Assembly (NCBI GenBank): GCA_052034405.1
Contig: JBPOIO010000004.1
Span: 751 to 64,750 of the forward strand
Length of the DNA stretch: 64,000 bases
From: Candidatus Magasanikiibacteriota bacterium
GTDB taxonomy: Bacteria; Patescibacteriota; Patescibacteriia; Magasanikbacterales; UBA922
Reading direction: 5' to 3'
In this document: positions 9,479-56,790 of the stretch, in pieces
How positions within the stretch are numbered: position 1 is the stretch's first letter
How the letters are laid out: every line of letters starts with the position of its first letter
The notes under the pieces: generated by a model
Database searches by the model: none
Told to the model about the DNA's origin: nothing
Seen by the model: the letters and a program-made list of their open reading frames with translations, nothing else
Translations under genes and position numbers: made by a program

Positions 9479-10906
9479 CTATTCGGATACCTTATTCCCC
9501 CGCCCCAAACTTTCATTCCAGCCACTACTCGTGATTTGAACAAATTCTGCGTTCTCCTGCATCTCTCGGATATTACTGGCACCGCAGTAGCTAATGGCGC
9601 TTTGCAAGCCTTTTTTGAGCCCCTTGACTACATCCTCTACAGCCCCTTTATAATCCACGAGTGTCGCAATCCCCTCTACAAAAATATCCATTTTTTCTTT
9701 TATGTGTTTTCCAACTTCATGTTCTTTGCGAATATGATTGCTATCATAAGAAGCACTGCCTGCATATTTTTTGTATCTTTTCCCATCTTTCATAATAATC
9801 ATGCCTGGTGCTTCGTCTGTTCCTGCAAAAAAACTTCCCGAATAGATACTACTGGCTCCTGCGGCAATTGCTTTGGCCACATCGCCTGGATATTTCATTC
9901 CACCGTCGGCTGTTACTGGTATGCTATAATTTTTTGCAACTTCACAGACATTCATCACAGCAGTAAATTGCGGAACCCCGGCCCCACTCATCACTCGCGT
10001 TGTACAAACTGGCGAAGGACCAATACCGACTTTGAGCCCATCTGCTCCAGCTTCGATCAAATCCTGCGCTGCTTCGGCAGTCGCAATATTTCCCACCATT
10101 ACGTCAACCGAAAAATTTGCTTTGAGTTCACGAAGTTTTTGAATAACAAAATCCGAATGCGCATGCGCAACGTCGAGGACCAAGACATCAACGCCTACTG
10201 CAATGAGTGCCTCTGCGCGTTCCACAGCGTCTTTGACCCCAACTGCCCCTGCAACCATGAGACGCCCTTTTCGATCCCTCGAGGCATTTGGCCAATATTC
10301 AAGTTTACTAATATCTTGTGTTGTAATAAGGCCCCGCACACGACCATTTTCAATCAGTGGCAATTTTTGAAATTTATAATGCTGCAGTACTTTTTTGGCA
10401 TCTGACAAACTAATTCCATATTTGGCAGTGACCAATTTTTCTGCCGGAGTCATGAGCTCTCGAATAGGCCTATCCAAACTTTCCTCAAACATATAGTCGC
10501 GGTGCGTGAGCATACCCACAAGCTCTTCGCCATTCATAATAAGCAGACTACTCACGTTGGAACGCTTCATCACTTCTTTTGCTTCACGAAGTGTCAGTCG
10601 AGGACTCACAGAAACAGGATCTTCCACGATTGAACTCGTACTTTTTTTTACCAATTTTACTTCTGCTGCCTGCTCTTCAATCGTTCCAAACTGATGAATC
10701 ACACCCAGTCCCCCTTCACGCGCCATGGCAATCGCCATTTTGTGCTCGGTTACTGTTGCCATATTGGCACTGACAAATGGCGTATTGAGAATAATATTTT
10801 TGGTAAATAAACTTCGCACATCTGCTTCGGATCGAGATTTGAGTGGACTTCGCTTTGGAACGAGCAAAACATCCTCATAGGTAAATCCAGTCGGTATTAT
10901 TTTCAT
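9479..10906 (-). CDS. guaB: inosine-5'-monophosphate dehydrogenase
   Basis: [20 protein letters not shown] start at 10906. It has CBS domains and a catalytic [11 protein letters not shown] loop. The upstream in-frame extension is probably not translated. Confidence 0.9.
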
Positions 10907-13112: not shown

Positions 13113-13184
13113 GCACTCGTCGTTCAATGGATAGGACGCTAGTTTGCGGAACTAGCAATCTAAGTTCGATTCTTAGCGAGTGCA
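13113..13184 (+). tRNA. tRNA-Arg, anticodon GCG (read from loop TTGCGGA)
   Basis: 72-nt cloverleaf folded by hand. The acceptor stem GCACTCG/CGAGTGC is perfect. The D-stem is GTTC/GGAC with GG in the loop. The anticodon stem CTAGT/ACTAG is perfect. The T-stem is CTAAG/CTTAG with a TTCGATT loop, and the discriminator is A. No CCA is encoded. Confidence 0.8.
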
Positions 13185-14669
13185 CACGTCGGGAAGTTGC
13201 GCCAAAGCGCGACTTACCTGGAACGGATACTTTGCTTCAACTAGCAGAGTTTTTTGTTTCAGCGCGAGGTTCGAGAAGAGGGTCTGGCAGACCTCGCGTT
13301 TCTTCTCGGGCTCGCCAGCTTCGAACTTTTTCTTCGCTAGAACTGCGAACGAAATCCCCTCCATCAAGGGTTCGATGAGTCCCGCGACTGGACTGGCTCG
13401 TTCCAGTTGCGCACGGAGCGCAATCTGCTCGCTTGTGAGGGCTCTGCGGTCCTCATCAAGCTCCTCGCCGGTAATGCGACCCTCAGCAGCTAGATGACGA
13501 AGGTTTCGGAGCTTCTCGTCGTTCTTCACCAGTTTCGCTTCGACCGTTTGGACGACCCTCGACTCCGAATCGCAGACCTCAGCGCGAACGCTCCTCAGCT
13601 CGTCCAGCACGGCCTCCGCTACGTCAGGCGGGAGAGTGAGATCGTTGATGCTCAACGCGAGTTGCTCTTCAAGTGACACTTGCTCGACGGACGGCTCGTC
13701 GCAGTAGAGATATGCACGACTCTTTCGGCAGCAATGGTAGTACGTGTAGCGGGTTCCGAATCGGTTGACCTTGTTCTCCGCAGTGACGACGGACGCACAA
13801 GAACCGCATCTCAATATGCCACGGTATGGAAACCGGTTCGTTTGTGGGCGCGGTTCAGATGCACCCAGGCGCTTGAACTGCTCCTGTACTTCCTCGAACT
13901 CGGCCCAGGAGACGGCGGCGGGATGCGTGCCGGGGAACGATCCCTCCTTCCGAACCATCAGCCCGGCATAGAACGGGTCGCGCAGTGTCCGGTACAACAA
14001 CGACTGGGAAATCAACTTCCCACCGTGGCTCCGCATCACCGGAGTCGTCAGGTGCCACTCCTTGCGGGCTCGGTTGAGGATATCGGACATTGGCACCCCC
14101 ATTCGCCGCAATCGAAACGCCTCTCGAATTAGAGGAAGTCGCACCGGATCAGCCAGGAGCTTCATTGTCGAACGGTCGCGGGTGTAGCCAATTTTCGGAG
14201 CACCAGGCCAAAGGCCCTGTAGCAGTGCCTGCTTGTTGCCACGACATATGTTCTTGCGGAGGTCATCAATGTCTTTCGTGGCCATCCCGAAGATGATGGA
14301 CATCATGAGCTTGTCGTCACCTGACCCAGTGAACGCCCGCTCGGGCGTGAGGATCTCCTTGATCGCTCCGGTGCCGAGCAGCCACATGATGGAGCCACCA
14401 TCGATGGGGTTCCTCGCCAGACGGTTGAGATGCCAGCACAAGACTGCGTCGGCTTTCTTCGCGTTGAGCATGGCCATGACTCTTGCGAACTCTGGCCGGC
14501 CTGGTTCCTTCGCAGACCGCGTTTCGCGGATCGGCTCCCCCACGATGAGAAGATTGCGGGCCTGAGCAAATGAGAGAAGCTCCCGCTCCTGGGCTGGTAT
14601 TGAGAGCTGCTGCTTCCCGTCGTCGAGCGTGGATTTCCGCACGTAGACTACGTATTTCAATGGGTTCAT
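13173..14669 (-). CDS. large serine recombinase (integrase) of the GC-rich island
   Basis: N-terminal resolvase catalytic motif YVRKST..QQLSIPAQ with the serine nucleophile. It also has a recombinase domain, a zinc ribbon (CGSCASV...YYHCC) and a coiled-coil. Its stop codon lies inside the tRNA T-stem. Confidence 0.9.
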   Translation of the reverse strand: MNPLKYVVYVRKSTLDDGKQQLSIPAQERELLSFAQARNLLIVGEPIRETRSAKEPGRPEFARVMAMLNAKKADAVLCWHLNRLARNPIDGGSIMWLLGTGAIKEILTPERAFTGSGDDKLMMSIIFGMATKDIDDLRKNICRGNKQALLQGLWPGAPKIGYTRDRSTMKLLADPVRLPLIREAFRLRRMGVPMSDILNRARKEWHLTTPVMRSHGGKLISQSLLYRTLRDPFYAGLMVRKEGSFPGTHPAAVSWAEFEEVQEQFKRLGASEPRPQTNRFPYRGILRCGSCASVVTAENKVNRFGTRYTYYHCCRKSRAYLYCDEPSVEQVSLEEQLALSINDLTLPPDVAEAVLDELRSVRAEVCDSESRVVQTVEAKLVKNDEKLRNLRHLAAEGRITGEELDEDRRALTSEQIALRAQLERASPVAGLIEPLMEGISFAVLAKKKFEAGEPEKKREVCQTLFSNLALKQKTLLVEAKYPFQVSRALAQLPDVCTR

Positions 14670-14892: not shown

Positions 14893-14950
14893 TCATCGTA
14901 ACAACTCATTGCTTGGTCGTCCCGTCGCACCGTGATGCGAAAATGAACAA

Positions 14951-14980: not shown

Positions 14981-15242
14981 CATGCTTGTCATCTCTCTTC
15001 TTCTGCCCTGTGGATAGCGTGGTCAGAATCCGACCATCGTGCTACGGGACTACATCTTGCGGCTATGAGAAGATATACTATGTAAGCCGCGAAATCGGGC
15101 AAGACGAGAGTTTGAAAATGTCGTCACCCCAGTCTCGCGGAAATATGTGCCCTAGGCAGGCCATTCATCCCAACAAGAGAGGAGGTGACATTAGGTAGAC
15201 TACAACTTGTGCATATTCTGTCAAGTGTAGGTACCAATAGCT

Positions 15243-15944
15243 ATGACAAACAATGAATCAGAACAACGCGTGCTGAGCGAGAAATCGCTCGTGTTCAACG
15301 TGGAAGTTCTTCGCAAGAACTTCAGCAAGCACGTGGTCACGCAAGAAGACCTCGCCACCATGACCGGCGTGCCGAGGAGCGCGGCTGCGATGGAGTCCTC
15401 CCAACTGCCCGGCCGTGGTGTTCGCCGGAGTTCGTTCGTCATAGCGTGTCTGGTCAAGGTCAACGTGGGGTCGCCCTTGGGCCAGTCCGCCGGCTTCGCG
15501 TCGAAGCACCTCCTTCTCGTCCGTGGTTTCCCCGAGTCGGTTCGGGGCGGCCTTCGCCGCCTCAGATTCGGTTCGCGCGACCGGACACGACTCCGCGCTC
15601 AGCACCTGCGAGGCGTCGGGGGTCATCGTGGTGGTCGGTCGCGTCTTCACGAGCCCGACGCTACGCGCGGCGGATCGAGTGGTCGAGCGCGCGAAGGGTG
15701 CCGTGGTGTCTGCCCCTGGTGTGGCCCCCTGGTGCGAGCCCCCGGTCAGTCCGACACACCACCCCTCGGCTTCTCATCTTCTTGGAATCACTCGGTTTTC
15801 AAGGAACGCAAAACAAGGAATCAGCCCCTTCTTGGGGCATCTCGTTCATCCGGCGCACGGACGCGGACGACCGCGCCACTCTGCGCTTCCACCTCGCGTT
15901 CGCCAAGGTCCGCGAGCCGGTACCAGCCGCTCGTCAGCGCGTAG
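15243..15944 (+). CDS. XRE-family HTH regulator (N-terminal about 65 aa); the long Arg/Gly-rich C-terminal continuation is doubtful
   Basis: LRKNFSKHVVTQEDLATMTGVPRSAAAMES resembles an XRE HTH. The rest of the 233-aa frame is low-complexity, typical of open frames in GC-rich DNA, and overlaps the Replic_Relax gene on the opposite strand. Confidence 0.4.
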   Translation: MTNNESEQRVLSEKSLVFNVEVLRKNFSKHVVTQEDLATMTGVPRSAAAMESSQLPGRGVRRSSFVIACLVKVNVGSPLGQSAGFASKHLLLVRGFPESVRGGLRRLRFGSRDRTRLRAQHLRGVGGHRGGRSRLHEPDATRGGSSGRAREGCRGVCPWCGPLVRAPGQSDTPPLGFSSSWNHSVFKERKTRNQPLLGASRSSGARTRTTAPLCASTSRSPRSASRYQPLVSA

Positions 15945-16693
15945 TTCACCGGCTCGGCCTTCAGGTCGAGGACCCGGCCGAAGACCGGACCACCGATGTC
16001 CACCGCCTGGCGGCCCAGGGCGGCGAGCCGCTTCACCGATTTCGCCACGATGAGCATGCCGTCGGGGACCAGGCCCGCGATCTCCATGCGCGCGGCGTGC
16101 ATCCGGGCGAAGAAGGCGATCTTGTTCTCGGCCACGTACTGCGGCCCCTCGGTGCCCGTGTCGATCTCCACGACGAAGCTGCGCCGGCGCTCGGCGTCCT
16201 CGACCGTGAGGACCGCGTCGGGCCTGTACTTGAGGATGGTCGGGAGGTGGGCCTGGTCAAGCTCCCACTCGAACTGGTAGCGAACCAGGCGCACCCCTCG
16301 GGACAACTCGCACTCGGCCACGACCCGGCTCCAGAAGCGGACGTTCATCAGGTGGTGCTCGCCCGGACCCGAATACTCGGCCGGCGCGCTGCGGGGCCTC
16401 TCGTCGAGGCCGAGGTCCTCGAAGAGCGCGATCTGACCCTTGCGGTCGAGCACGTACCGCGTCTCTTCGTGCAGCGCGTTGCAGTACCCGGCCAGGTACC
16501 CGGTATCCATGAGCTTCTTGAGTCGCCGGCGGGCCATCGCCACGGACGGGAAGTAGAGCGGCACGACGTCGGACACGGTGAGCACCTTGGCCTTTCGGAG
16601 GGCCTCGAAGAGCGCGAGGTCGCGCTCCTGGAGATCAGCCGCGCGTCCGGCGCGGCCGTTCCCCGATTGCCTGCCGAGTCCACGTCCCGCCAT
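15821..16693 (-). CDS. replication-relaxation family protein (Replic_Relax-like)
   Basis: N-terminal wHTH-like LQERDLALFEALRKAKVLTVSDVVPLYF...ARRRLKKLMDTGYL, then a conserved core (EWELD, YRPDAVL, FVVEIDTGTE) as in plasmid/ICE replication-relaxation proteins. Confidence 0.55.
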   Translation of the reverse strand: MAGRGLGRQSGNGRAGRAADLQERDLALFEALRKAKVLTVSDVVPLYFPSVAMARRRLKKLMDTGYLAGYCNALHEETRYVLDRKGQIALFEDLGLDERPRSAPAEYSGPGEHHLMNVRFWSRVVAECELSRGVRLVRYQFEWELDQAHLPTILKYRPDAVLTVEDAERRRSFVVEIDTGTEGPQYVAENKIAFFARMHAARMEIAGLVPDGMLIVAKSVKRLAALGRQAVDIGGPVFGRVLDLKAEPVNYALTSGWYRLADLGEREVEAQSGAVVRVRAPDERDAPRRG

Positions 16694-16705: not shown

Positions 16706-17026
16706 CTACACCTTCGGGTTGACGATGGACACCCCGCAGGTGTGGCAGTTGACGTAGGCGGGCGCGGTCTTGCAGGCCGGGCAGGCCGACCACACCCAGC
16801 CGTCGCGCGTGGCGCCGCAGGTCGAGCACTCCCAGAGCCCGTCCGCCGGTTGGGGCGGGCAGCCCCGCTTGCACTTCAACTCGCGCTTGACCACGGCCAT
16901 GCCGACCTTCCCGGTCTTGTAGGTCCACTTGCCAAAGGAGATCAGCTTGAAGAGCGCGGCCAGCGAGAAGACCACGGCCGCGTACATGAGCTGAAACGGC
17001 GCCAGAATCCAGCGAAGTTCATCCAT
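16706..17026 (-). CDS. small membrane protein with C-terminal Cys-rich zinc-ribbon-like domain
   Basis: It has one TM helix followed by CxxC...CxxC...CxxC spacing (CSTCG, CPAC, CHTCG). Confidence 0.4.
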   Translation of the reverse strand: MDELRWILAPFQLMYAAVVFSLAALFKLISFGKWTYKTGKVGMAVVKRELKCKRGCPPQPADGLWECSTCGATRDGWVWSACPACKTAPAYVNCHTCGVSIVNPKV

Positions 17027-17050: not shown

Positions 17051-19075
17051 CTATCCGATGAACGGCCCTCTTCGCGTCCGGTTGCCCTTGGGGCTCTGGC
17101 CTTCGTGGCCCTTCTCCTCCTTTCCCGTAGCCCGTTGCCCATCGCCCAGGGGGACTGGCGGCGGAGCCGTTTGGCCGCCAGGTTCGCGTTTGGGTTGCTG
17201 CTCGTCTGGCCGAGGCGCAGCCTCGACCTCCTCTTGTCGCCCCTCAGATTCCTTCGCTGGCCGCGGCCTCACCTTGCCCGGAGGTGGCCGCTGCGGATTG
17301 CGCCGATCAGGCTTCGAGCCTGGCTCCCTGACCTCGTGGGGCACCCGGTCGCGCAGATCGCGCCTCGGGTCGCGAGCGAAGCCGCCCGCCACTTCCTTGA
17401 TGTGGTGCTTGCGCTTCTCGATGGCCTCGTTGAGGACGTGCGCTGGCGTGCCGCAGCCGTACCCACGGCACAGGGCGCGCAGCTCGTCGGAGGCCCGGTC
17501 AGCGGCCCGGCGCAGATCGTCGAACGGGACCTCGGGCGCAATGAGCCGTGCTGCCGGCCGCCCCAGCGCCCGCGGGTAGAACCAAAAGTGGCGCTTCGGC
17601 AGACGAATCAGCTCTTCGACGTGGCGCGCTCGCTGCTCGCTGGGGCGCTCGACGCGGGTCTCGTAGCGTGGGCCGTCGAGATCTCGCCGAACGCGGCAGT
17701 GCTCCGAGACCGGGAACATGTGGGAGAAGCGCCGGGCATCGCTCGGCGACTGCTGGAACACGGTCTGGTAGCCGCAGGAGTTCTCGATGGTCGCGAGCAG
17801 CGCCGAGCTGCGGCTCGCCACCTGCGCCGGCAACTGGTTGATGAGCCAGAGCGCCACGTTCTTGTGCCGGGCTAGGGTGAGCAGGCTCTCGAAGTCGCCG
17901 GCCAGGTCCGCGTCGAGACCCAGCCACCACTCGTCGATGGCCGCGATCACGGGCCGGCGGGTATCACGTCGGGAGTAGATGGCCCGGGCAAGCCCACGCA
18001 CGAAGACCGAGATCCAGAACCGGGTCAGGAACTCGGCGCCGCGCGGAGCCCCGCCCAGGTTGACCACGGTGAGCGGCCCTTCAAGTAGGGAGGCATAGGA
18101 CACGCACCCTGGGGCGCAGAGCACGCGCGCCGTATCCTCGAAGAGCAGCAGGTCGAGCCGGGCCACCACGGCCTGCACCGACTCGGTCGGCTCCTGCGGG
18201 AACCGGTGGGTGAAGTACTCGCGGATCTCATAGTCCTCGACTTCCCTGAGGAGGCCGTTCAGGTACCGGTCGTTGATGAGCGCCGAGCGCAACTCGAGGA
18301 TGGACAACCCGCCGACCGAAAGCATGAGGCGCAGGGCGTTGAGGAGAATCCCCATCATCCGGACGCCCCAGTCACCCCCGGCCCCGCCGAGGGCCTCCCC
18401 GATGAGGTTGGCGATCTCCTTGGCGTGAAGCGAGCGCGAGATGCCGCCGACGGGAGCAAGCAGGTTCATTTCCGGGAGGTTGCTTTCGTCGAAGGGCGCG
18501 ACGACGTTCAGGCCACGAATGACCTCGATGATGTCGTCTTCTTCAGCGTCTCGGAGCATGGCCGGGAGGAGCAGATCGGTGATCCACTCGGCGCTCTCGC
18601 CCTTGGCGTCCACGTGCAAGAGGGACCACGGCATGCCCGGCCCGATGAGCTGCATCTCCTCGGCGAAGGTCTGCGCGCTCTTGCCCCGGCCCGTGGCCCC
18701 GACGATCCAGCGGTGGACGCCGTACAACTCCGAGACCGGTACGGCGACCGGGATGTCCTCGGCCTCGGCCAGGGTGCCCACGAGGACGCGAACACCATCC
18801 TCACCGGCCCGCTCGTCGAGATCGTTCAGAAGGTGGACTTCAGGCGGCGGGTCGAGGCTCTCAAAGTGGTGCTCGATGGCCGCCTCGACCAGCTTGCGCT
18901 TGGAGCCCACGAAGAGCCGCCGAAGGCCGGCTTCGAGCAGGCTCACGAGAGGATCCGCGTTTGCTGGAGAAAGAGGCGCATGACGACGCTTGCTCCTGGT
19001 TGCCGAGCCCCTGCCCGGGCCACGAAGCAAAGCGTAGGACGATTTCCGGGATCCGCAACTTTTTTTCTGAAGCAC
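17051..19075 (-). CDS. FtsK/TraD/VirD4-like P-loop ATPase (type IV coupling-protein-like) with Arg/Pro-rich C-terminal tail
   Basis: Walker A is GATGRGKS and Walker B is VIAAIDEWW. A WLINQLPAQ motif resembles the T4CP Q-motif. The TraM-recognition-like C-region is low-complexity. Confidence 0.5.
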   Translation of the reverse strand: MLQKKSCGSRKSSYALLRGPGRGSATRSKRRHAPLSPANADPLVSLLEAGLRRLFVGSKRKLVEAAIEHHFESLDPPPEVHLLNDLDERAGEDGVRVLVGTLAEAEDIPVAVPVSELYGVHRWIVGATGRGKSAQTFAEEMQLIGPGMPWSLLHVDAKGESAEWITDLLLPAMLRDAEEDDIIEVIRGLNVVAPFDESNLPEMNLLAPVGGISRSLHAKEIANLIGEALGGAGGDWGVRMMGILLNALRLMLSVGGLSILELRSALINDRYLNGLLREVEDYEIREYFTHRFPQEPTESVQAVVARLDLLLFEDTARVLCAPGCVSYASLLEGPLTVVNLGGAPRGAEFLTRFWISVFVRGLARAIYSRRDTRRPVIAAIDEWWLGLDADLAGDFESLLTLARHKNVALWLINQLPAQVASRSSALLATIENSCGYQTVFQQSPSDARRFSHMFPVSEHCRVRRDLDGPRYETRVERPSEQRARHVEELIRLPKRHFWFYPRALGRPAARLIAPEVPFDDLRRAADRASDELRALCRGYGCGTPAHVLNEAIEKRKHHIKEVAGGFARDPRRDLRDRVPHEVREPGSKPDRRNPQRPPPGKVRPRPAKESEGRQEEVEAAPRPDEQQPKREPGGQTAPPPVPLGDGQRATGKEEKGHEGQSPKGNRTRRGPFIG

Positions 19076-20121: not shown

Positions 20122-20182
20122 GATTATCTCCGCAGGTGATTGTGGAGAAGGTCATACGCCGACGAACAAGTGGCCGCAAGGT

Positions 20183-20198
20183 GGGAAATCGATTTCCC
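20183..20198. promoter_or_regulatory. perfect 16-bp palindrome GGGAAATCGATTTCCC in the divergent promoter region (candidate operator)
   Basis: Perfect palindrome between the divergent parB-like gene and the plus-strand operon. A near-identical copy is at 25386–25401. Confidence 0.4.
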
Positions 20199-20297: not shown

Positions 20298-20999
20298 GTG
20301 GAGCGCCTGTTGAGTGATCGTGAGTACGACTCGACAACGGAGGTCACAAGCGAGATCATTCAGCTAGCTGAAGCCGAATCGTTGGAAGAAGCCGTCGCAA
20401 AGTTGAACATGCTTCCGCTTACCGGCACCTCGAAAATTGCACTCAAGATGCTGTCCCCGTGGACCCGCGGCGGTGCCGAGACGTACGTGACAACATTTGA
20501 TATCACGGCGGGGGCGGAGTGTGCTCCTTGCATTCTAAAGGCCTGTGTGGCGTTCGCCATCACGCCTGGCGGAGTAGAAGCAATTCTGGAGTCGTGGATC
20601 GCCCGTAGACGGTTACTTGCGGCCCATGGAGCAGCGGTCCCGCGGCTCTATGCATACGGCCGCGGGGTCGTTCTCGAGGAACGACTTCCTTACAGAGCGC
20701 AGGACTTGATCGCTGCCAAATCTGCGACACGCCCCGCTGTATTAGCAAGCCTTTTCAAGTTGACCCGCGCCTTGGAGCAGGTACGATTCCAGCCCGTATC
20801 AATACTCCCTGATGTCATGTCGGACGGAGAACGGGCCGTTCTGGTGGATTTCGGCCAGGATCTTGGAGACCCGATGCCTGCCGAAACCGACGTAGACACC
20901 TACGCCCGCACGGTCGCCTCGCTCACACAACTCGGAATAAATCTCAGCCCCGAAGAGCAGGAACTTACACTTGCCGTGCATAACGGCCACGTACACTAG
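20298..20999 (+). CDS. hypothetical protein, first gene of the island operon (weak protein-kinase-like features)
   Basis: 233-aa ORF. Weak resemblance to kinase motifs (CILKAC as a possible beta3 Lys, VLVDFGQD as a possible DFG). Speculative. Its stop overlaps the next gene. Confidence 0.35.
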   Translation: MERLLSDREYDSTTEVTSEIIQLAEAESLEEAVAKLNMLPLTGTSKIALKMLSPWTRGGAETYVTTFDITAGAECAPCILKACVAFAITPGGVEAILESWIARRRLLAAHGAAVPRLYAYGRGVVLEERLPYRAQDLIAAKSATRPAVLASLFKLTRALEQVRFQPVSILPDVMSDGERAVLVDFGQDLGDPMPAETDVDTYARTVASLTQLGINLSPEEQELTLAVHNGHVH

Positions 21000-22005
21000 G
21001 ACCAGAATGAAAATTCGTGACGCAGTCGAAGCAGCGCATTCCGTGAACGACGGGGCAACCGTAGTTGCCCCCCTAGATCTCGGCGGGAACGAGCAGAACC
21101 AGCTTCTGATGTTCCTGAAACCGGAGACCTTCCTGAGCAACGATAGGGAAACGCCAGCAACGGTGGCCGATCTTGCTGACCGCCTCATCAACTCGTTCCG
21201 ACTGCGGATGTCTGGGATCATCGGAGTGTCCGGGCCGACGCTCGGGTCACTCCGTGCAATGGACAAGCACTACGGCTTCATCAACAAGATGTCACGGGCT
21301 GCATCCGTCTCGCTGGATGCCAAAACGCTTGAAGGTCTTCGGTCCCGGTATGCCACTGGACCGGATGGCGCGGTTCTGGGTGGCCACGAGTTCCTTGAGC
21401 GTCATCAGGACTGGGATGCCCAGAAGCTGGACACGCTGTGGGCGACGAAGAAGAGCGACCGAATTCGAAGTGGCCTGTATGCTCAGCTCTACGACATTCC
21501 CGGCACTGGACCGACCATCCTGCTCAACGGCTTTCATCCTGCACAACTTGAACACTTCACTGCGCCAGGTCGAAAGGTCATCCTGATCGTGCTGAACAGC
21601 GACCTGCCCTGGTCTGTTCTGCGACGACGGATGCTCGGTGACACCTTCCCGGAGAAGGCGGTTGCGGGCTCGTTCAGGCGCGCACTCTACGACACCCGAG
21701 AGAAGTTGGGCTTGCCGGACGTCTCAATCGCCAACAATTTCGCGCATCTCTCGGCTGGACCATTCGAAGCTGCGTTTGAACTGAACAACTTCCTCGGATC
21801 TGTCTGCCCAGACCAGTTCACAATTGCGAACAGCCGATTGTGGAAGCACGGCCTGCGAATCGGGTTGACCAACGACCAGTTGGCTGGGTCACTCAACAAT
21901 CCGCCCGTGGAGGTCGCTGGAACGCGGCTTCCGCTCTTCGACGCTACCGAAGATTGTGACTCGCTGACCTCTCTTCAGCTGCTGGCATCGCACGGCGCGG
22001 GCTGA
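20971..22005 (+). CDS. nucleoside-diphosphate-kinase-like protein with an approximately 70-aa insertion (start probably at Met 21007)
   Basis: By-eye alignment to Ndk. LMFLKPETF matches IIKPNAV. FHPAQLEHFTAPGRKVILIVL matches FF.GLVEFMTSGPIVV.VL. RRRMLGDTFPEKAVAGSFRRALYD matches LLGATNPA.ALAGTLRADYA. NNFAHLSAGPFEAAFEL matches NGTHGSDSVESAAREI, with the catalytic His retained. Confidence 0.5.
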   Translation: MPCITATYTRTRMKIRDAVEAAHSVNDGATVVAPLDLGGNEQNQLLMFLKPETFLSNDRETPATVADLADRLINSFRLRMSGIIGVSGPTLGSLRAMDKHYGFINKMSRAASVSLDAKTLEGLRSRYATGPDGAVLGGHEFLERHQDWDAQKLDTLWATKKSDRIRSGLYAQLYDIPGTGPTILLNGFHPAQLEHFTAPGRKVILIVLNSDLPWSVLRRRMLGDTFPEKAVAGSFRRALYDTREKLGLPDVSIANNFAHLSAGPFEAAFELNNFLGSVCPDQFTIANSRLWKHGLRIGLTNDQLAGSLNNPPVEVAGTRLPLFDATEDCDSLTSLQLLASHGAG

Positions 22006-22018
22006 ATCGAGGCGACCT

Positions 22019-22873
22019 ATGGCGTCAAGTGCACCACGCGGCTGGCTCGGAAAAACGGCTGGCGTATTTAGCCTACACGAGTCTGACCGTACGTGCGGAT
22101 CGTATATTTCTATCCGAGACGCTGCCACGATTCTAAAGGTCGACCCTGCCGAACTCGACCACTACCGGCTCGCACAGCACGGCGAGCAAGATTTCACGAC
22201 AGACAAGACGCTTGGTCGCGCATGGGCTTCTGGCCAGATCACGAGTCCTCGCACATCCATGCGGCGCGGAAATTCCATGGTAAGTTTCGACGAACTCATC
22301 GTGCTCACTCTCATTGAGTTGACCTTGCCTGGTGCAGCCGTTCATCCGCAAAAAGAGGTTGATAGGTTCCTGATAGACTTTCTCGTGGAACACAATGGCG
22401 TAACAATTGCGCTTGAGTTTTGCGGACCGCACCACTTCATTCGACGACACCCAGGAGAGCGCACGCCCCTGGACCCGCGTGTTCGCGCTGAGCGCATTTC
22501 GCGGCTGCTGAACGTCGAGTGCGTTATCTGGCCGTATTGGGTCCAACGATGTGAGTCAAACGTCCGAGCCCTTTTTGATTCCTCAGTGCGCGGAATCGCC
22601 AGCGTTTGGTCAACAAGCGCCCAGTTCGGCAACTTTTCATTTCCTGACTCTCACAAAGTGATTCAGGACATCAACGCGCGCTTTCGAGTGGAACGGGAAA
22701 CTGGCATCGGGTACATGTACACTGACGAAATCGTGAGCAAGCCAGTGCACCCCGTGGTCTCCCAGATTAGACGGGGACGGGAGTCCGTTTCAAAACTCGT
22801 CCCGCCCGGTTCCACATCGTCGAAGCGATACTGGGTTCCACGGGTGCTTTGGTCCGTAATCGACGGTGGCTAG
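22019..22873 (+). CDS. DUF559/Vsr-like restriction-endonuclease-fold protein
   Basis: DRFLIDFLVEHNGVTIALEFCGPHHF followed by DPRVRAERISRLLNVECVIWPYW matches the DUF559 pattern (DF..x..L.iE.DG..H ... D..R...L...G..V.R). The usual Asp is replaced by Cys (EFCG). Confidence 0.45.
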   Translation: MASSAPRGWLGKTAGVFSLHESDRTCGSYISIRDAATILKVDPAELDHYRLAQHGEQDFTTDKTLGRAWASGQITSPRTSMRRGNSMVSFDELIVLTLIELTLPGAAVHPQKEVDRFLIDFLVEHNGVTIALEFCGPHHFIRRHPGERTPLDPRVRAERISRLLNVECVIWPYWVQRCESNVRALFDSSVRGIASVWSTSAQFGNFSFPDSHKVIQDINARFRVERETGIGYMYTDEIVSKPVHPVVSQIRRGRESVSKLVPPGSTSSKRYWVPRVLWSVIDGG

Positions 22874-24641
22874 CATGACTGACGACTTTCACGTCGACGC
22901 CGGCCTAATTCAAGCAGCGCAGGCGCTGGCGCGCATCATGCGAGAGCAGGAGTTCTGCCTCTACCTAACCGGGCTCGCCGCGTCAGGGAAGACCGCCGCA
23001 GCAGAAATCATTTCGCGGATGACGGGTGTGCCCGTTGTTGACTCCGGCCTGGTATTCCGACTCGCTGCCTATCTTTGCGTACATGTTCCTGTCGCAGCAG
23101 AGAATCCGGGCGTGCTCGCCCGCCTCTTGGGTGAGCACACAATCAAGGTCGTGAACGGGCAATATCGAATTCTGTCTGGTGACTCGGACATTACGGAGAG
23201 ACTTCAGGCGCCAGATGTCGGCTCTCAGGCGACTGCAACGGCCGCGGAACCTAGACTTCGAGAAGTGATTCTTACCTTTCTAAGATCTAGGACGAAGGCG
23301 CCAGCCATCGTGGCTGCACGCGGCGTTACTGAACCACTCACAACAGGAAACTTCGTTCAGATAGAATTGCGAGCAGACCTAGAGGTTCGCGCGGCTCGGC
23401 GCGCTAAGCAAAGTGGTTCGCCAGTTGCTACGATTCGAAAGAGCATACGAGCTCGAGACGACCGCGACCAACGCGGCCCGTCACGGTATCCAAGCGCTGA
23501 CTTTGTTGACAGTTCGAAACTGACCCTTCATGAGACCGTAGCCCGAGTTGTTGAAAGAACGACCGCGCGGATTTCTCGCCTTCTGAGCATCTCTGAATTT
23601 AGGAAAGTTGAGTTCAACAACGCTGAACAGCTGAGCAACCCCTTGCTTGTACGTCTCTGGGCCGAAGCACAGGCAGGACTTGAGGAGGAAGAAAGCACAC
23701 AGGGCATCCCGAAGGGGCACGCGAAAGCACGTTTTCTCCTCAATCTCTCGCGTTACTCGTCGCTGGATCTACTGGGACTGTCGCATTCATGGATGCCTGG
23801 GGCTCTGCCGGGACTTGTGGACACAGCCGCTGCTGTCCCCGCAAACGACTTGCTGATGCGCGAGTGTGCTAGAACGGTGGAAGAGCGGGCCAAGTCGATT
23901 CGGCGATTCATGGAAGCGACACGCTTTCCGAGTGCTATTTTTGATGAAAGATCCCTTCGGCTTGAGCTTGTTCGAGGGCGACCAGTGGGGACCTCGGAAG
24001 GTGGAGAGGTGGTAGAACACTATCACCTCCGTGACACGTCCCCAGAAGTCGGCATGTGGCTCGAAAACAATCTTCACTACTTAGGTGCAGCACGCCTCGA
24101 CACCACTCATAGAGTCGCGCTTGTAGAAGCGTCGAGTGAATTTCCTGTCCTGTACTTGTCATTCGCTCCAAACACTCGCAAGTACATGGAGCCGCTCCTG
24201 TGGCGAGTCGGACTCAGGTTAGAGGAGGTTGCTGTCGCAGTACGTGGCTACGGAACGCCCCGTTGTCCTCGGAATGCGATGGCATGGTTCCTTCGTGAGG
24301 CATGTGCTCGGGTCAAGCAAGACTTTCCACATCTCCGTGCCGTTGTCACAGACATCAACCCCAACTGGGGCTTCAGCGGATCGTCCTTTCAGGAGGCCGG
24401 ATTTGTCACGTTGGGAATGAAGTACGCTCCCACAAGCTTTGTCGCGGGCGATTATTCCCCGCGACGGAGCCTCGAGCGCCAACCCGGAAGCCGCGCGGCA
24501 GTTGGGAACAGACTGCCGCTGGTTCCAACGTTGGTCATGATTAGGCCATTTCCCAAGGAATCCATTCTTCGAACACGTATTGCAGAGTCGGTGGTTGATG
24601 GTGTATACTTGATACCTCGGGACTTGTATGAAGAAAAATAG
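22866..24641 (+). CDS. cytidylate-kinase-like P-loop kinase fused to a C-terminal GNAT-like acetyltransferase domain
   Basis: N-terminal about 235 aa align by eye to Cmk: LYLTGLAASGKTAAAEIISRMTGVPVVDSGLVFRLAA versus ITIDGPSGAGKGT...LLDSGAIYRVLA; LSGDSDITERLQAPDVGSQATATAAEPRLRE; IRARDDRDQRGPSRYP versus IKERDDRDRNRAVAPL. The C-terminus has a GNAT-like motif A (VRGYGTP) and NPNWGFSGSSFQEAGF. Confidence 0.55.
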   Translation: MASMTDDFHVDAGLIQAAQALARIMREQEFCLYLTGLAASGKTAAAEIISRMTGVPVVDSGLVFRLAAYLCVHVPVAAENPGVLARLLGEHTIKVVNGQYRILSGDSDITERLQAPDVGSQATATAAEPRLREVILTFLRSRTKAPAIVAARGVTEPLTTGNFVQIELRADLEVRAARRAKQSGSPVATIRKSIRARDDRDQRGPSRYPSADFVDSSKLTLHETVARVVERTTARISRLLSISEFRKVEFNNAEQLSNPLLVRLWAEAQAGLEEEESTQGIPKGHAKARFLLNLSRYSSLDLLGLSHSWMPGALPGLVDTAAAVPANDLLMRECARTVEERAKSIRRFMEATRFPSAIFDERSLRLELVRGRPVGTSEGGEVVEHYHLRDTSPEVGMWLENNLHYLGAARLDTTHRVALVEASSEFPVLYLSFAPNTRKYMEPLLWRVGLRLEEVAVAVRGYGTPRCPRNAMAWFLREACARVKQDFPHLRAVVTDINPNWGFSGSSFQEAGFVTLGMKYAPTSFVAGDYSPRRSLERQPGSRAAVGNRLPLVPTLVMIRPFPKESILRTRIAESVVDGVYLIPRDLYEEK

Positions 24642-24644
24642 CCT

Positions 24645-25217
24645 ATGAGAATCCTTGTAGCCACCCGCAACAGGGACAAATTCAATATCGTCAAGCGCCT
24701 GGTAGAAGCAACTGTGCCGGACGCACATCTTGTTTTTCTCGGCGACACTCCGATCAGCGGAGACGTTGTTGAAGCAGGGTCAATCCACGAACGCGCCCGG
24801 CAAAAGGCAGTGTACTTTTGGGGGCGCTTGGAGTGGTCTACAATAGCCGACGACTTCGATTCAGTGCTGGCGGTGGACGACGGGCTGAGCGTCGGCGGCG
24901 CGGAAGCCACGCCTCACTCCAAAGAGATGACAGAACGAATACTCAGTGAGGCGTGGCCAACGGGAACTAAGGTGGATGTCGTTCGCGCGTTTTGCCTGAT
25001 AAGGCGTGGGGAAGTGCCGCGTGTGGAACTCACGGCGATCCCGTTTGTATTTGTAGGCAATCCACATGGCGTCCAACGTGAAGACGGTACGTATCCGTTG
25101 AGCCAGGTCCTTAGCCCCGAGGGAATGGCTCAACCAGTGTCTCAACTCACAAACGATGAAGAAGATGCATTCTACCTTCGCCACTCTCGGGAGCCGCTCG
25201 TTGCGCTGTTCTCATAG
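24645..25217 (+). CDS. Ham1/ITPase-like (RdgB-family) non-canonical NTP pyrophosphatase-like protein
   Basis: MRILVATRNRDKFNIVKRLV versus MKIVFATGNKGK; TIADDFDSVLAVDDGLSVGGAEAT versus AIADDSGLAVDVLGGAPG. It starts 4 nt after the upstream stop. Confidence 0.5.
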   Translation: MRILVATRNRDKFNIVKRLVEATVPDAHLVFLGDTPISGDVVEAGSIHERARQKAVYFWGRLEWSTIADDFDSVLAVDDGLSVGGAEATPHSKEMTERILSEAWPTGTKVDVVRAFCLIRRGEVPRVELTAIPFVFVGNPHGVQREDGTYPLSQVLSPEGMAQPVSQLTNDEEDAFYLRHSREPLVALFS

Positions 25218-25260: not shown

Positions 25261-25297
25261 CTCGACCAGGGTCCTGACTTCTATCCTCGCTGTGCAC
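25261..25297 (+). repeat. 37-bp direct repeat copy 1 (CTCGACCAGGGTCCTGACTTCTATCCTCGCTGTGCAC), candidate att/junction site
   Basis: 33 of 37 positions are identical to 27494–27530. Weaker similarity extends about 14 nt upstream. It contains a GTGCAC core. Confidence 0.6.
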
Positions 25298-25385
25298 TAA
25301 CCGTGAGCATGTCGAACTGAGCATGCTCTAACGAAACATCGCGTAATTGCGATGTTTTCATTTTCTAAGCAGTCGTTCGAGCACG

Positions 25386-25401
25386 CGGGAAATCGACTTC
25401 C
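25386..25401. promoter_or_regulatory. second copy of the GGGAAATCGAyTTCCC palindrome (one mismatch) upstream of the PD-(D/E)xK gene
   Basis: GGGAAATCGACTTCCC, about 57 nt upstream of the ATG at 25458. It is adjacent to the palindrome GAGCATGCTC at 25311–25340. Confidence 0.35.
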
Positions 25402-25457
25402 CAGCAATTCGAACAGGGCTTGTTGGCCTTTCTCTGATATGGTAACATTTAACTAAT

Positions 25458-26291
25458 ATGTTGAAATCACACATGGCTGCCCGCGAGGGCGTACTGCTTG
25501 CCAGCAGTAAGGTCGCAGCAAATACAGGGCATTCGCTTCATAAGGGAACGCCTCGCGAGATCTTTATCCGCGAGTTCCTGGAAAGCCATCTCGCCGAGAC
25601 CGTCGCGATCGGCACTGGCGAAGTGATCGACTCAGAATCGATGCCGAATCCGCCACCGACAAGACAGCGCAATCAGTACGACATCATCATTTACAAGAAG
25701 AATTATCCAAAACTCGCCATCGGCGGTGGGATCTCGGCGTTTCTTTGCGAGTCGGTTGTAGCGACAATCGAAGTGAAATCCACTCTCACTAAGGATGAGC
25801 TACAATCGAGTGCAAGAGCCGCGCGAGCTGCGAAGCTACTCAAACCCAGTAGAGTCGAGGCTTTCAGGACAGGCTACCACCCGCCGTCGATCTTGAACTA
25901 CGTCGTGGCATATGACGGACCTGCATCAATGAAGACTGTGGCCGGTTGGCTACAGGATGCTGACGCGTACGCTGGAGTGCCAGGGCATCCGGATCTAAGT
26001 GGTGCCGACAGAACTCAGAAGGCGAGCCCGAGCCTCGATGGCGTGTTCGTGATGGGCAAAGGGTTCATGTTGTACGGCAATTCACCACTTTCTATTCTTT
26101 CGGTGGACGACCGCAAACGTGCGTCGAACCTCAAATGGGAATTCGCTGACTGCGAAGTTGGAAGTCTGTTCTTGCTATTCGTAACGTTGAGCCAAGTCGT
26201 GAGTGGGCACTCTGCGACCTGGCTCGACGCTGGGCCATACCTCAGCGGATTCTCTGTCCAAAATGATTCAATTGGCATGGTCGGCTGGTAG
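25458..26291 (+). CDS. PD-(D/E)xK nuclease-fold hypothetical protein
   Basis: DIIIYKK ... ESVVATIEVKST gives the D...(E)xK arrangement typical of restriction-endonuclease-like folds. No closer family recognised. Confidence 0.4.
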   Translation: MLKSHMAAREGVLLASSKVAANTGHSLHKGTPREIFIREFLESHLAETVAIGTGEVIDSESMPNPPPTRQRNQYDIIIYKKNYPKLAIGGGISAFLCESVVATIEVKSTLTKDELQSSARAARAAKLLKPSRVEAFRTGYHPPSILNYVVAYDGPASMKTVAGWLQDADAYAGVPGHPDLSGADRTQKASPSLDGVFVMGKGFMLYGNSPLSILSVDDRKRASNLKWEFADCEVGSLFLLFVTLSQVVSGHSATWLDAGPYLSGFSVQNDSIGMVGW

Positions 26292-27380
26292 TACCAAGCT
26301 CGGTTGCAGGTTATTACTGAGCTGTATGCGGAGCACTAGTTCGTCAAGTCGCATCTTCTCTTCAAGCGCGTCCATCTGTTCTGATGGCACCCCAGTTGCG
26401 CTTCTAAGCTGTGATCGAACCATCGTCTCTAGTTTCTCCGCGTCAGTGCTGAATCGACAGCCCGTTCGATGGCACCGATAATAGCGATAGACTCGTCCAT
26501 TTCTCTTCATGTGTTGTTCGCCGACAAGGAATCCCAAACAATTTGGACAAGTGACCTTTCGAGCGAGTAGGAAGTGCAAGTGCTTCCGAGGCTGCCCGCC
26601 GCTGTGCTTCTGCCGAAAGACTTCCTGGCTTCGGTCGAATATCTCCTTGGTGATCAATGATGGATGAGTACCGGTGTACTCAACACCCACGACGACCATC
26701 TTCCCCATGTAGAATGAGTTGTGGAGGATCGCACAGACCTTTGCTGCACTGACTTTCTTGCCGTGCCGGCTGACGAGGCCAGCACGGTGCAGTTCGTCAG
26801 CAAGCTGAGCGCTTCCGACTTGACCAGTGGCCCAGCGCTCGAAAGCCATCTTTATGAATCTTGCTCGGGCAGGGTCAACGACGACTTTGCCGTGCTCCTT
26901 GAGATACCCAAGAGGAGGAAGTCCACACCATCCTCCACGAAGGAGCTTCTCTTCGATCCCCCTCTTGACTTGTTGCGCCAGGTTGGCGCTGTAGAATTCT
27001 GCTTGTGCTGACATAATACGTTCAATGAATTGACCAACTGGAGTTTCTTCGCAGTTCTCCACGGCCGAAACGATTCGAACACCGTGGCGACGGAGCCGCT
27101 CCTTGATGGTCAGATAAGTAAACATGTCGCGTGCCAGTCGGTCGAGACGGTGAACGAAGAAGATGTTCACGTCGCGACTGCGACACGCAACGTCGAGTCC
27201 AGAGAGAAGGCCTGTTCGTCCACGGAATGATGTGCCACTCGCCACGTCCGTGAACGTCCCCGCAGCAACCCAACCTCGCTCAGAACAAAGTCGTCGAAGC
27301 GTGCGCAGTTGTGCTGGAATTGAAAGATCCTTCTCCCCTTGCTTGCTCGTTGAAACGCGAGCGTAGAGTATGACTGACAT
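26268..27380 (-). CDS. serine recombinase (resolvase/integrase family, 370 aa) of the sub-element
   Basis: It has the YARVSTSKQ catalytic motif, a recombinase domain and a zinc ribbon (CPNC...YRCHRTGC). Confidence 0.85.
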   Translation of the reverse strand: MSVILYARVSTSKQGEKDLSIPAQLRTLRRLCSERGWVAAGTFTDVASGTSFRGRTGLLSGLDVACRSRDVNIFFVHRLDRLARDMFTYLTIKERLRRHGVRIVSAVENCEETPVGQFIERIMSAQAEFYSANLAQQVKRGIEEKLLRGGWCGLPPLGYLKEHGKVVVDPARARFIKMAFERWATGQVGSAQLADELHRAGLVSRHGKKVSAAKVCAILHNSFYMGKMVVVGVEYTGTHPSLITKEIFDRSQEVFRQKHSGGQPRKHLHFLLARKVTCPNCLGFLVGEQHMKRNGRVYRYYRCHRTGCRFSTDAEKLETMVRSQLRSATGVPSEQMDALEEKMRLDELVLRIQLSNNLQPSLVLPADHAN

Positions 27381-27493
27381 ATGATGTTGAGTTAATGACT
27401 ACACTCTTCATCATACACCTTTGATGGTACAGCGTGATGTTCATACTGTCCCGTAGCACCGTGATTCGTTTCTGAACATCCAGTCAACATCTT

Positions 27494-27530
27494 CTCGACC
27501 AGGGTTCTGACTTCTCTTCTCGCGGTGCAC
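27494..27530 (+). repeat. 37-bp direct repeat copy 2 (CTCGACCAGGGTTCTGACTTCTCTTCTCGCGGTGCAC) at the island/host junction
   Basis: It is followed immediately by AT-rich host sequence. GTGCACAC is shared with the tRNA 3' end. Confidence 0.6.
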
Positions 27531-27540
27531 ACATAAAAAA

Positions 27541-50462: not shown

Positions 50463-51716
50463 CTAAAATTTAGAAATATCACGAGCAGAAAAAAGATTCA
50501 AGGTCCAATTTGCCGCCACTTTAAACTTTTTTTGCCAAGAAATAAGTTTACTCAGATATATCGTACGCCAAATCCACCAGGCAAGATGACCACTGAATGA
50601 AAAATTGGAAATTTCCCCCATAGCCATCCAGTGACCAAGGGAAACCAACGAACCCTTGTGATGATACTCAAAGGCTTGAAGTGTTGTACCCGAAATTGAC
50701 GCCGCAATATTCTTGGCAGCAGCCTCAGCTTCTTTCACCGCCACTTGAGCCAGAGCTGGCAAAGGTTTTTGTGTTTTTGGATCAATATAACCAGACATAT
50801 CACCAAGCACAAACACTTCAGGATAGTCTTTCATATTGAGTGTGCTTTCTACAGGAATCGTTCCATTTTTATTTTTTATAATTTCTTCATCAAATTTTAG
50901 AGAGACAGGAGCAATTCCCGCAGTCCAAATAGGATTTGAACTTTCAATAAGTTCAGCATTTTTACACATTACTCCCCGTTCATCAATACTTACTACTTCT
51001 GTATTCAACAATATTTTTACAGCTTTTTTTGTGAGTACTTCAAAGCTTTTTTTACGCAATTTTTCGGAAAACATGGACAAAAGTTCTCTGTCTCGATGAA
51101 TCAAAACAATTTCTGCATCACGCAAAATATTTGCATTACAAAAATATTTATCAAGTGTCCCTTGAAAAAATTCTATCATTTCTGCGGCAAGCTCTACCCC
51201 AGTTGGACCGCCTCCAATAATTACCATACGAAGCAATTTTCGTCGTTCGCGTTCATCTGTAACATGTAAGGCCTGTTCACAAACATCAATACAGCGATTT
51301 TTAATACGCTTGGCATCATCCAAATTTTTAAGCGTCAAACAATTTTCCTCAGCACCAGGAATAGCAAAAAAATTGGAAGTACTTCCAAGTCCAAGTACCA
51401 AATAATCGTAGCGAATCTCCCCATCAGCTGTTTTGATAGATTTTTCTTTGAGTGAAATTGATTGCACTTCACTGATGTGAAATTTTGCAAGACAACAACC
51501 CAAAACTTTTCGGATTGGTTCAACTATATTTTGGGGATCAATACTACCCGTCGCTACTTCGTGTAACAGTGGTGTAAACAAAAAATAATTTGTTCGACTT
51601 ACCATCACGAGTTCAACATTTTTATCATGATGATATATTTTATGAAGTTGTTTATAGGCATAAACACCAGCAAAACCCGCACCGAGAATAACGATGCGTT
51701 TTTTTTCTTTTTGCAT
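50463..51716 (-). CDS. ndh: type II NADH dehydrogenase (NDH-2)-like FAD/NAD(P)-binding oxidoreductase
   Basis: GAGFAGV and a second GGGPTGVE dinucleotide-binding motif. Confidence 0.8.
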   Translation of the reverse strand: MQKEKKRIVILGAGFAGVYAYKQLHKIYHHDKNVELVMVSRTNYFLFTPLLHEVATGSIDPQNIVEPIRKVLGCCLAKFHISEVQSISLKEKSIKTADGEIRYDYLVLGLGSTSNFFAIPGAEENCLTLKNLDDAKRIKNRCIDVCEQALHVTDERERRKLLRMVIIGGGPTGVELAAEMIEFFQGTLDKYFCNANILRDAEIVLIHRDRELLSMFSEKLRKKSFEVLTKKAVKILLNTEVVSIDERGVMCKNAELIESSNPIWTAGIAPVSLKFDEEIIKNKNGTIPVESTLNMKDYPEVFVLGDMSGYIDPKTQKPLPALAQVAVKEAEAAAKNIAASISGTTLQAFEYHHKGSLVSLGHWMAMGEISNFSFSGHLAWWIWRTIYLSKLISWQKKFKVAANWTLNLFSARDISKF

Positions 51717-56595: not shown

Positions 56596-56790
56596 ACATG
56601 CCAAAAGTTTACCGGGCCTATGGTTCGCATGTACACCGACTGAGCCGGGGGCATCCAAGGTCCGTTTCCCTATTAATAGGGATTAAATGATAGCGGAAGT
56701 ATAGCAGAAACAGGGCCTTTTTGTCAAGGGTACCTGTTGACAATGACGATTTTATGCTATACTATAAACACCTTATATTTTCCCCTCTCT

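Follow-up and report, generated by a model that had tools for sequence, protein, structure and literature searches.

A repeated palindrome as the probable cognate site of an orphan ParB/Noc-family protein on an integrated Myxococcota-type element

The 64,000-nucleotide stretch of contig JBPOIO010000004.1 from Candidatus Magasanikiibacteriota bacterium analyzed here, from now on referred to as the window, contains a 14,345-bp integrated element with a guanine-cytosine (GC) content of 59%, the island, in host sequence of 39% GC. At 20183-20198 the island carries a perfect 16-bp palindrome, GGGAAATCGATTTCCC, flanked by the ATG of an orphan ParB-like gene (20121, minus strand) on one side and, on the other, by the GTG (20298, plus strand) with which a divergently transcribed five-gene operon begins. 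Our analysis indicates that this palindrome is, with good probability, the cognate site of the adjacent ParB/Noc-family protein, encoded on what appears to be a Myxococcota-type element, and as such analogous to the parS, OB and bisS sites. An earlier note on this DNA had reported the palindrome at this position, which is confirmed, and had treated it as an operator of the five-gene operon. Comparison of related loci does not support the latter assignment: judged by conserved gene neighborhood, the palindrome belongs with the ParB/Noc-family gene and the operon is variable cargo. The sites are non-random and co-occur and co-vary with the ParB-like gene over many loci, and the encoded protein retains ParB motifs and, in a predicted model, the ParB fold.

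Results

The palindrome is repeated within the island

Two imperfect copies of the palindrome are present in the window. The one-mismatch copy GGGAAATCGACTTCCC that had been placed about 57 nt upstream of a PD-(D/E)xK nuclease open reading frame (ORF) does exist, its true position being 25387-25402, shifted by one base from the coordinates first given, and its distance 55 nt, and a third copy with two mismatches, GGGAAATCAACTTCCC, which the earlier note did not include, lies inside the coding sequence of a serine recombinase at 14006-14021. The three copies differ from one another by transitions alone, at three central-right positions, and share a constant outer GGGAA...TTCCC. Scanning the window with up to three mismatches allowed returned 3 matches, compared with a mean of 0.34 in 100 dinucleotide shuffles of the window, none of which reached 3. 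With up to two mismatches, 0.003 matches are expected analytically for the 14.4-kb island and 0.015 for the window as a whole. All three copies are located inside the island and none in the host flanks. These values are far from the chance frequency that the earlier note had named as the outcome speaking against a shared site and, together with the comparative data below, bear out its view of a repeated, non-random site of a protein-binding type. Half-site heptamers showed no enrichment beyond the three full sites.

It should be noted that perfect 16-bp palindromes as such are not rare in the window, which contains four of them, so that the case made here rests on repetition within the island and on the comparison of loci. 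The three others, TTGGAAGTACTTCCAA, TCCCTATTAATAGGGA and CCCAAAATATTTTGGG, are found in the low-GC host part (51373-51388, 56667-56682 and 63519-63534) and are unrelated to the island motif.

The intragenic copy is identical at 16 of 16 positions in the orthologous serine recombinase gene of a related locus (L013), the gene DNA being 77% identical overall. Only 1.9% of all 16-nt windows are fully identical in this comparison, and synonymous changes are found beside the site. Further, the same 16-mer is the parB-proximal site of four related loci (L013-L016). The copy upstream of the nuclease gene is preceded by a terminator-like hairpin (25333-25358), detected in a combined promoter and terminator scan.

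The palindrome accompanies the ParB-like gene across loci

At least 128 homologues of the ParB-like protein could be identified, the genome matches being mainly metagenome-assembled genomes (MAGs) of Myxococcota, in agreement with the GC content of the island. About 100 related loci (designated by L numbers) were compared, and 34 non-redundant loci at ≥40% identity were used for counts. A perfect 14-bp palindrome of the same family is located in the parB-proximal zone of 24 of the 34, most of the others carrying versions with one or two mismatches, and palindrome density in this set is 1.20 per kb near parB versus 0.13 per kb elsewhere. The family consensus NGxAxTCGAxTxCN, found 55-200 bp upstream of the parB-like start, can be followed in relatives drawn from genomes and metagenomes down to about 40% identity. 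Multiple sites occur as well: members of one subclade carry 4-6 copies of GGCAATCGATTGCC, arranged as 45-bp tandem repeats just downstream of parB, one locus (L042) has three copies upstream of parB, and extra, mostly intergenic and partly intragenic copies are present on other elements (three each in L017 and L013, others in L020, L030, L033 and L036).

In the closest relatives the conserved backbone has the order palindrome, parB, FtsK-like ATPase gene, gene for a 106-amino-acid protein and Replic_Relax gene, and the genes on the far side of the palindrome differ by lineage. In DNA comparison with L013 (92%) and L002 (75%), the homologous part of the window reaches exactly to the outer palindrome edge and no further. 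The FtsK/HerA-like ATPase gene directly downstream of parB is syntenic in L001, L002, L003, L013-L017 and L047, and the trio ending in Replic_Relax is confined to the nearest clade and L047. More distant homologues are surrounded by unrelated genes of accessory type (restriction-modification, nuclease and AAA-ATPase genes among them), with the palindrome still 80-95 bp upstream of the start codon. Thus, parB is the sole constant neighbor of the palindrome across the loci.

The half-sites vary symmetrically among clades (GGAAAT, GGCAAT, TGCAAT, CGCAGT, TGCAGT, CGTAAT, GGACAT and others), the central TCGA being mostly retained while the arms vary. The segment of the protein that aligns to the recognition helix of ParB and Noc shifts with the half-site, being LTKRQKNNL, LGERQMRNL, LRERQKYNL, LKRRQTQLL, LRRRQLLYI or LRDRQVQNL. 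Such co-variation of aligned helix and half-site is the pattern expected of a dimeric helix-turn-helix (HTH) protein and its site. Of the two binders that the earlier note had suggested, the ParB-like protein is strongly supported by this comparison across loci; the other, an XRE-like HTH protein, is considered below. One locus (L107), on a 6.6-Mb contig, encodes two paralogous ParB-like proteins 10 kb apart (1-336 and 10001-10888), the second gene having its own variant palindrome, GGGAAACCGGTTTCCC, upstream.

Literature searches for the core motif returned no paper. In phage and plasmid records nothing closely related to the ParB-like protein was found, RepB at 30-35% identity being the best match, and viral contigs yielded no relative of the first serine recombinase and a single remote ParB relative.

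The adjacent gene encodes an orphan ParB/Noc-family protein

The ParB-like protein consists of a disordered N-terminus, a ParB N-terminal domain of the CTPase type, an HTH domain and a C-terminal region. Pfam ParB_N and TIGR00180 score above their cut-offs, as does HTH_ParB with 25.3 bits against a cut-off of 22.6. With a profile built from 29 homologues, matches spanning both domains were obtained to Noc (E = 4e-22), Spo0J and ParB, and weaker ones to KorB (E = 2e-5), and the alignment of the DNA-binding domain to Noc and ParB extends to about residue 244 of the profile. Two motifs, G132-F-R134-R135 and E168-N169-x-x-R172, are invariant in the 29 homologues and align to the GERR and ENLQR motifs of Noc. 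The AlphaFold2 model has a mean predicted local distance difference test score of 78, with residues 10-69 disordered and helices that match the HTH domain, and its best structural matches in Foldseek are Noc, KorB and ParB.

Canonical ParB proteins carry a ParA-interaction motif in their N-terminal region. No motif of the LG(K/R)GL type was seen in residues 1-70 when the alignment was inspected by eye, and neither the ORFs of the island nor the gene tables of related loci include a ParA-, CbiA- or AAA_31-type gene. The disordered N-terminus has an AT-hook-like KRRGRPP (residues about 48-54), which recurs in many homologues. No extra C-terminal domain was detected, only about 60 residues following the HTH region, and no conserved small HTH gene resembling a KorA-like co-repressor is located beside parB across the loci. 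PADLOC returned no match for the ParB-like protein or the five cargo genes.

The primary site abuts a putative parB promoter

A putative promoter of the parB-like gene lies immediately beside the primary site (Table 1). Its arrangement recurs in the closest clade, where the palindrome is followed by 2-3 nt, a conserved CTTGC and, 17 nt further on, GCGTAT. Both elements are found at the same offsets in L013, L002, L033 and L017, and CTTGC alone in L003, L027, L032 and L108, the -35-like CTTGC being kept in 9 relatives overall. The OB site of KorB at PkorA is also positioned directly upstream of that promoter's -35 (PMC11790492).

Table 1 Features of the island in the window, with sites, attachment cores and genes.
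Feature	Position	Strand	Remarks
Primary site GGGAAATCGATTTCCC	20183-20198		61 nt upstream of parB-like ATG, 3 nt from -35-like hexamer; palindrome kept at the same position in relatives
Secondary site GGGAAATCGACTTCCC, 1 mismatch	25387-25402		Intergenic, 55 nt upstream of DUF6602 nuclease ORF
Third site GGGAAATCAACTTCCC, 2 mismatches	14006-14021		Within coding sequence of serine recombinase 1
Putative parB promoter	20151-20179	minus	-35-like TTGCGG (20179-20174), 17-nt spacer, -10-like TATGAC (20156-20151)
Orphan ParB/Noc-family gene, 334 amino acids	19117-20121	minus	Pfam, TIGR00180 and PDB profile matches, AlphaFold2 and Foldseek
FtsK/HerA-like P-loop ATPase, 631 amino acids by gene calls	17051-18946	minus	Weak DUF87/HerA and PADLOC HerA matches
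Conserved 106-amino-acid protein	16706-17026	minus	Weak zinc-ribbon matches
Replic_Relax family gene, last of conserved backbone	15821-16693	minus	Pfam PF13814, E = 2.7e-13; synteny
Serine recombinase 1, 498 amino acids here (540 unintegrated)	13173-14669	minus	attP in its 3' end
Five-gene cargo operon	20298-25217	plus	Divergent from parB; absent from L002, L013-L017 and others
DUF6602/NucC-like PD-(D/E)xK nuclease gene	25458-26291	plus	Pfam PF20247; PADLOC PD_DExK, NucC
Serine recombinase 2, 370 amino acids, CcrA/CcrB/XisF-like (weak)	26268-27380	minus	Part of 2.2-kb module
attL core GTGCACAC	13180-13187	plus	Left island end, 3' end of tRNA-Arg(GCG)
attR core GTGCACAC	27525-27532	plus	Right island end
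att-arm-like 37-nt repeat	25261-25297	plus	Left border of 2.2-kb module

The island is a genuine integrated element with variable cargo

The attachment (att) core GTGCACAC is present at both ends of the island, its left copy overlapping the 3' end of the host transfer RNA (tRNA) gene tRNA-Arg(GCG) (13113-13185). Two assemblies of public runs (L020 and L021), 100% and 99.99% identical to the island, join position 27532 to 13180 via the 8-bp GTGCACAC and represent the unintegrated attP arrangement (L020, 3420-3490). With att cores at both ends and contigs in attP form, the island is a genuine integrated element. Since the attP-form contigs are 99.98-100% identical to it and its relatives are found in Myxococcota MAGs, these sequences suggest that the element passed very recently from one host to another that is only distantly related. 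Looking up the exact proteins of serine recombinase 1 and of three host genes returned no contig and hence no empty attB site.

On the plus-strand side of the palindrome, gene 4 of the cargo operon encodes an N-terminal cytidylate-kinase domain fused to a region of about 350 amino acids without known match, gene 5 has a weak Ham1/ITPase-like match and gene 3 a weak restriction-endonuclease-like match. The operon resembles a nucleotide-metabolism set, and relatives carry unrelated accessory genes at the same place, including AAA-ATPase and methyltransferase-domain genes. Because of this placement, the operon may be an undescribed defence or nucleotide-modifying system. The FtsK-like ATPase gave no informative sequence match in the PDB. 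Small ORFs are also found in the island, between serine recombinase 1 and Replic_Relax.

The copy at 25387, the DUF6602 nuclease gene and serine recombinase 2 together make up a 2.2-kb module, without parB, which is bracketed by a 37-nt att-arm direct repeat (25261-25297 and 27494-27530, 89% identical). Because of this bracketing repeat it is plausible that the module is a sub-element, and the corresponding idea in the earlier note thus receives some support. The related locus L013 has an att arm beside serine recombinase 1 and lacks the module. The two serine recombinases might otherwise be taken simply as a CcrAB-like pair split by integration, a reading that the repeat makes less compelling. 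The module layout resembles the tandem accretion seen in elements of the staphylococcal cassette chromosome (SCC) type. DUF6602 is a very large cross-phylum family that is also found beside a small serine recombinase in another context, without the palindrome. As DUF6602 homologues from elsewhere lack the palindrome, the site is not a feature of the DUF6602 family.

Another junction of recombination type, which has GCGTGCCGAG as its shared core, is located at 15367-15376, and the element, which encodes two serine recombinases, seems from these junctions to use two different attachment sites. The same core is found in L013 (about 1886 and about 14761), L001 (8734) and L020 (5647), where the element is inserted at GCGTGCCGAG into a larger element with a tyrosine integrase and a second Replic_Relax/TrwB/primase module. 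Further, the motif GTCCCGT(A/C)GCACCGTGAT is present upstream of both serine recombinase genes (14919-14949, 15009-15050 in inverted orientation, and 27448-27478) and may be a common regulatory or accessory site of the recombination module.

Discussion

Weighing the assignment

Several observations weigh against the assignment of the palindrome to the ParB-like protein or limit its scope. The glutamate of the GERR motif is replaced by phenylalanine (GFRR), because of which the predicted nucleotide use could differ from cytidine triphosphate (CTP); the ParB fold is able to bind ATP or GTP as well (PMC12704722). Neither a clamp-locking partner like KorA nor an activator partner like BisC was identified. 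A generic sigma-70 scan gave no consensus over either intergenic copy and did not call the parB promoter, whose place with the palindrome abutting its -35 is an inference made by eye and from conservation. Because it is conserved in one independent orthologue only, coding constraint could account for the conservation of the copy at 14006. The copy at 25387 is present in all contigs that have its module, however, these are near-identical (99.98-100%) and the copy is hence without independent functional support. Finally, co-variation of recognition helix and site is partly phylogenetic, with clades sharing both.

Of the other explanations, a pure partition centromere deserves the most attention, i.e. 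parS sites that would segregate an excised, replicating circle with the help of a host ParA or another motor and would have no regulatory role. The protein has its nearest relatives in partition ParB, RepB and Noc, the tandem arrays of 4-6 sites by parB in one subclade resemble plasmid centromeres, and with Replic_Relax encoded on it the element may replicate when excised. However, neither the island nor the gene tables of related loci contain a ParA-type ATPase, the N-terminus has an AT-hook-like RGRP instead of an LG(K/R)GL-type motif (by eye), and in the close clade the placement of the primary site against the -35-like element is precise, which suggests promoter control, so that we consider a purely segregational role unlikely. 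A centromere function is in any case compatible with a cognate site of the ParB-like protein, as KorB does both jobs. The sites could alternatively head a transfer origin or translocase locus (oriT or clt) used by the Replic_Relax and FtsK-like proteins, given that in the closest clade the palindrome heads the block of parB, FtsK-like, zinc-ribbon and Replic_Relax genes and that oriT regions usually contain inverted repeats. This is very unlikely considering that the palindrome persists in relatives without Replic_Relax and FtsK-like genes, that elements have three or more copies or even arrays, and that single-strand hairpins are weak (-5 to -6.6 kcal/mol), two of the three being no more stable than shuffled sequence; FtsK-like TraB proteins, moreover, have short direct repeats as their clt sites.

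A recombination site, be it a crossover or att-type site of the serine recombinases or a hotspot of cargo-cassette exchange, would explain why homology to L013 and L002 ends at the palindrome edge, why the five-gene operon of the island, like the first cargo block of L017, has a copy on either side, and why one copy is located in a recombinase gene. The mapped junctions are found elsewhere, though, at GTGCACAC (13180 and 27525) and GCGTGCCGAG (15367-15376), most palindrome loci have no serine recombinase, and the 45-bp tandem arrays are unlike att sites. Serine integrases require an asymmetric central dinucleotide, and the central CG of the palindrome is itself palindromic and confers no polarity, making this explanation highly improbable. 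Hardly any probability can be given to an operator for a different regulator such as the XRE-like HTH protein proposed by the earlier note. Palindromes are typical targets of HTH dimers and the corresponding gene is intact in the unintegrated form (118 amino acids, L020, 5516-5872; HTH_3 E = 0.0027, below cut-off), yet the copy in the window breaks off inside the HTH region at 15367-15376, is fused to unrelated sequence and has no Pfam match, the gene was not seen among the called genes or in tblastn comparisons of most palindrome-keeping loci, and the site variants follow the ParB recognition helix. Chance, or a hairpin or terminator without any protein partner, can practically be disregarded. 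While the window has four perfect 16-bp palindromes and symmetric changes would also preserve a hairpin, three island-confined copies were found where 0.003 are expected, the palindrome is kept beside parB over dozens of loci, its central TCGA stays constant while the arms vary, and the site is not followed by a T-run. Given how weakly the three sites fold, a hairpin or terminator was no longer considered.

Comparison with known systems

As cognate site of an orphan ParB/Noc-family protein, the palindrome is comparable to four described systems. In KorB-OB of the IncP plasmid RK2, a protein of the ParB-CTPase family encoded on a mobile element likewise has a short palindrome in several copies, of which those of KorB are promoter-near or distal and one immediately precedes the -35 of a promoter belonging to KorB's own regulatory circuit, and KorB structures (8qa8, 8qa9) match both the profile and the model. 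KorB, however, works with IncC (a ParA) and the clamp-locking KorA, neither of which is found here, its site sequence is different, the element analyzed here is integrative and not a plasmid, and similarity to KorB is below that to Noc or ParB. BisD of ICEclc in Pseudomonas is an orphan ParB-like clamp with bisS sites, including intragenic ones, that exerts long-range control of element genes (PMC12409273). Both systems have an orphan ParB-type protein without ParA on an integrative element and few palindromic sites, one of them intragenic (14006 in the island). In contrast to the 334-amino-acid protein described here, BisD has a C-terminal activator domain (BisDact) and needs BisC, neither being recognizable in the island, and bisS measures 23 bp, has arms of 11 bp and is unrelated in sequence.

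The ParB-parS systems and RepB of repABC plasmids share with the island a 16-bp palindrome by parB, multiple and sometimes intragenic copies and a CTPase fold followed by an HTH domain; this is also the best NCBIfam domain match, and RepB the best plasmid match (see above). ParA and a ParA-interaction motif are missing here, the site sequence differs, and the gene is linked to an FtsK-like ATPase, Replic_Relax and variable, apparently accessory cargo. Noc of Bacillus, which binds the Noc-binding site (NBS), matches best among PDB entries in both sequence and structure (7ol9, 7nfu), and it is likewise an orphan paralogue of ParB that has a 14-16-bp palindrome of its own. NBS is ATTTCCCGGGAAAT and contains the same heptamers as GGGAAATCGATTTCCC, GGGAAAT and ATTTCCC, in swapped order, which is probably a coincidence, and unlike the protein described here Noc is chromosomal, membrane-binding and without link to a mobile element. 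An orphan ParB-type switch with its own palindrome on a mobile element is therefore of a known kind (PMC11790492, PMC12409273, PMC12704722). The family, its site and the link of both to an FtsK-like/Replic_Relax backbone appear to be undescribed.

Proposed mechanism

A loading site of the parS or bisS type fits the data better than a promoter operator because of the intragenic third copy and the tandem arrays and intragenic copies of relatives. We hypothesize that a dimer of the ParB-like protein recognizes the two 8-bp half-sites via its HTH domain. Once bound to the site, the protein would bind CTP via its GxRR/ENxxR pocket, close as a clamp and slide onto the flanking DNA. Binding at the primary site would autoregulate the parB/FtsK-like/Replic_Relax backbone genes, in the geometry of KorB at PkorA, as proposed because this site abuts the -35 of their promoter. 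The secondary sites, about 3-6 kb apart around the 14.3-kb circle, would serve as further loading sites, and clamps released from them could reach the cargo operon and the DUF6602 nuclease gene, probably damping their expression. By analogy to KorB and BisD, the ParB-like protein probably autoregulates parB and may control neighboring cargo; coordinated control of the five-gene operon and the nuclease gene via the palindrome, as initially suggested, is possible, as is a role in keeping or positioning the excised circle.

Site pairs bracket cargo in two elements, with 20183 and 25387 located around the five-gene operon and 6287 and 9758 around the first cargo block of L017. A more speculative and rather unlikely extension would be that the orphan ParB clamp delimits domains of silencing or maintenance over variable, apparently accessory cargo, with the 2.2-kb module being a hitchhiker under the ParB of its helper element. 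If true, the nuclease gene of the hitchhiking module, or the inheritance or transfer of that module, would be under the control of the helper element's ParB.

Implications

It is only recently that orphan ParB-type CTP switches encoded by mobile elements, such as KorB and BisD, came to be seen as long-range gene regulators, and a recent survey reportedly contains many uncharacterized ones. For annotation, the palindrome of the island should be counted as part of the parB module rather than of the operon beside it; the line separating a conserved backbone from swappable cargo runs exactly at this site. More generally, a family of at least 128 proteins, mostly from Myxococcota-type elements, would gain a predicted cognate site, and the natural series of site and recognition-helix variants may be used to study how ParB specificity evolves.

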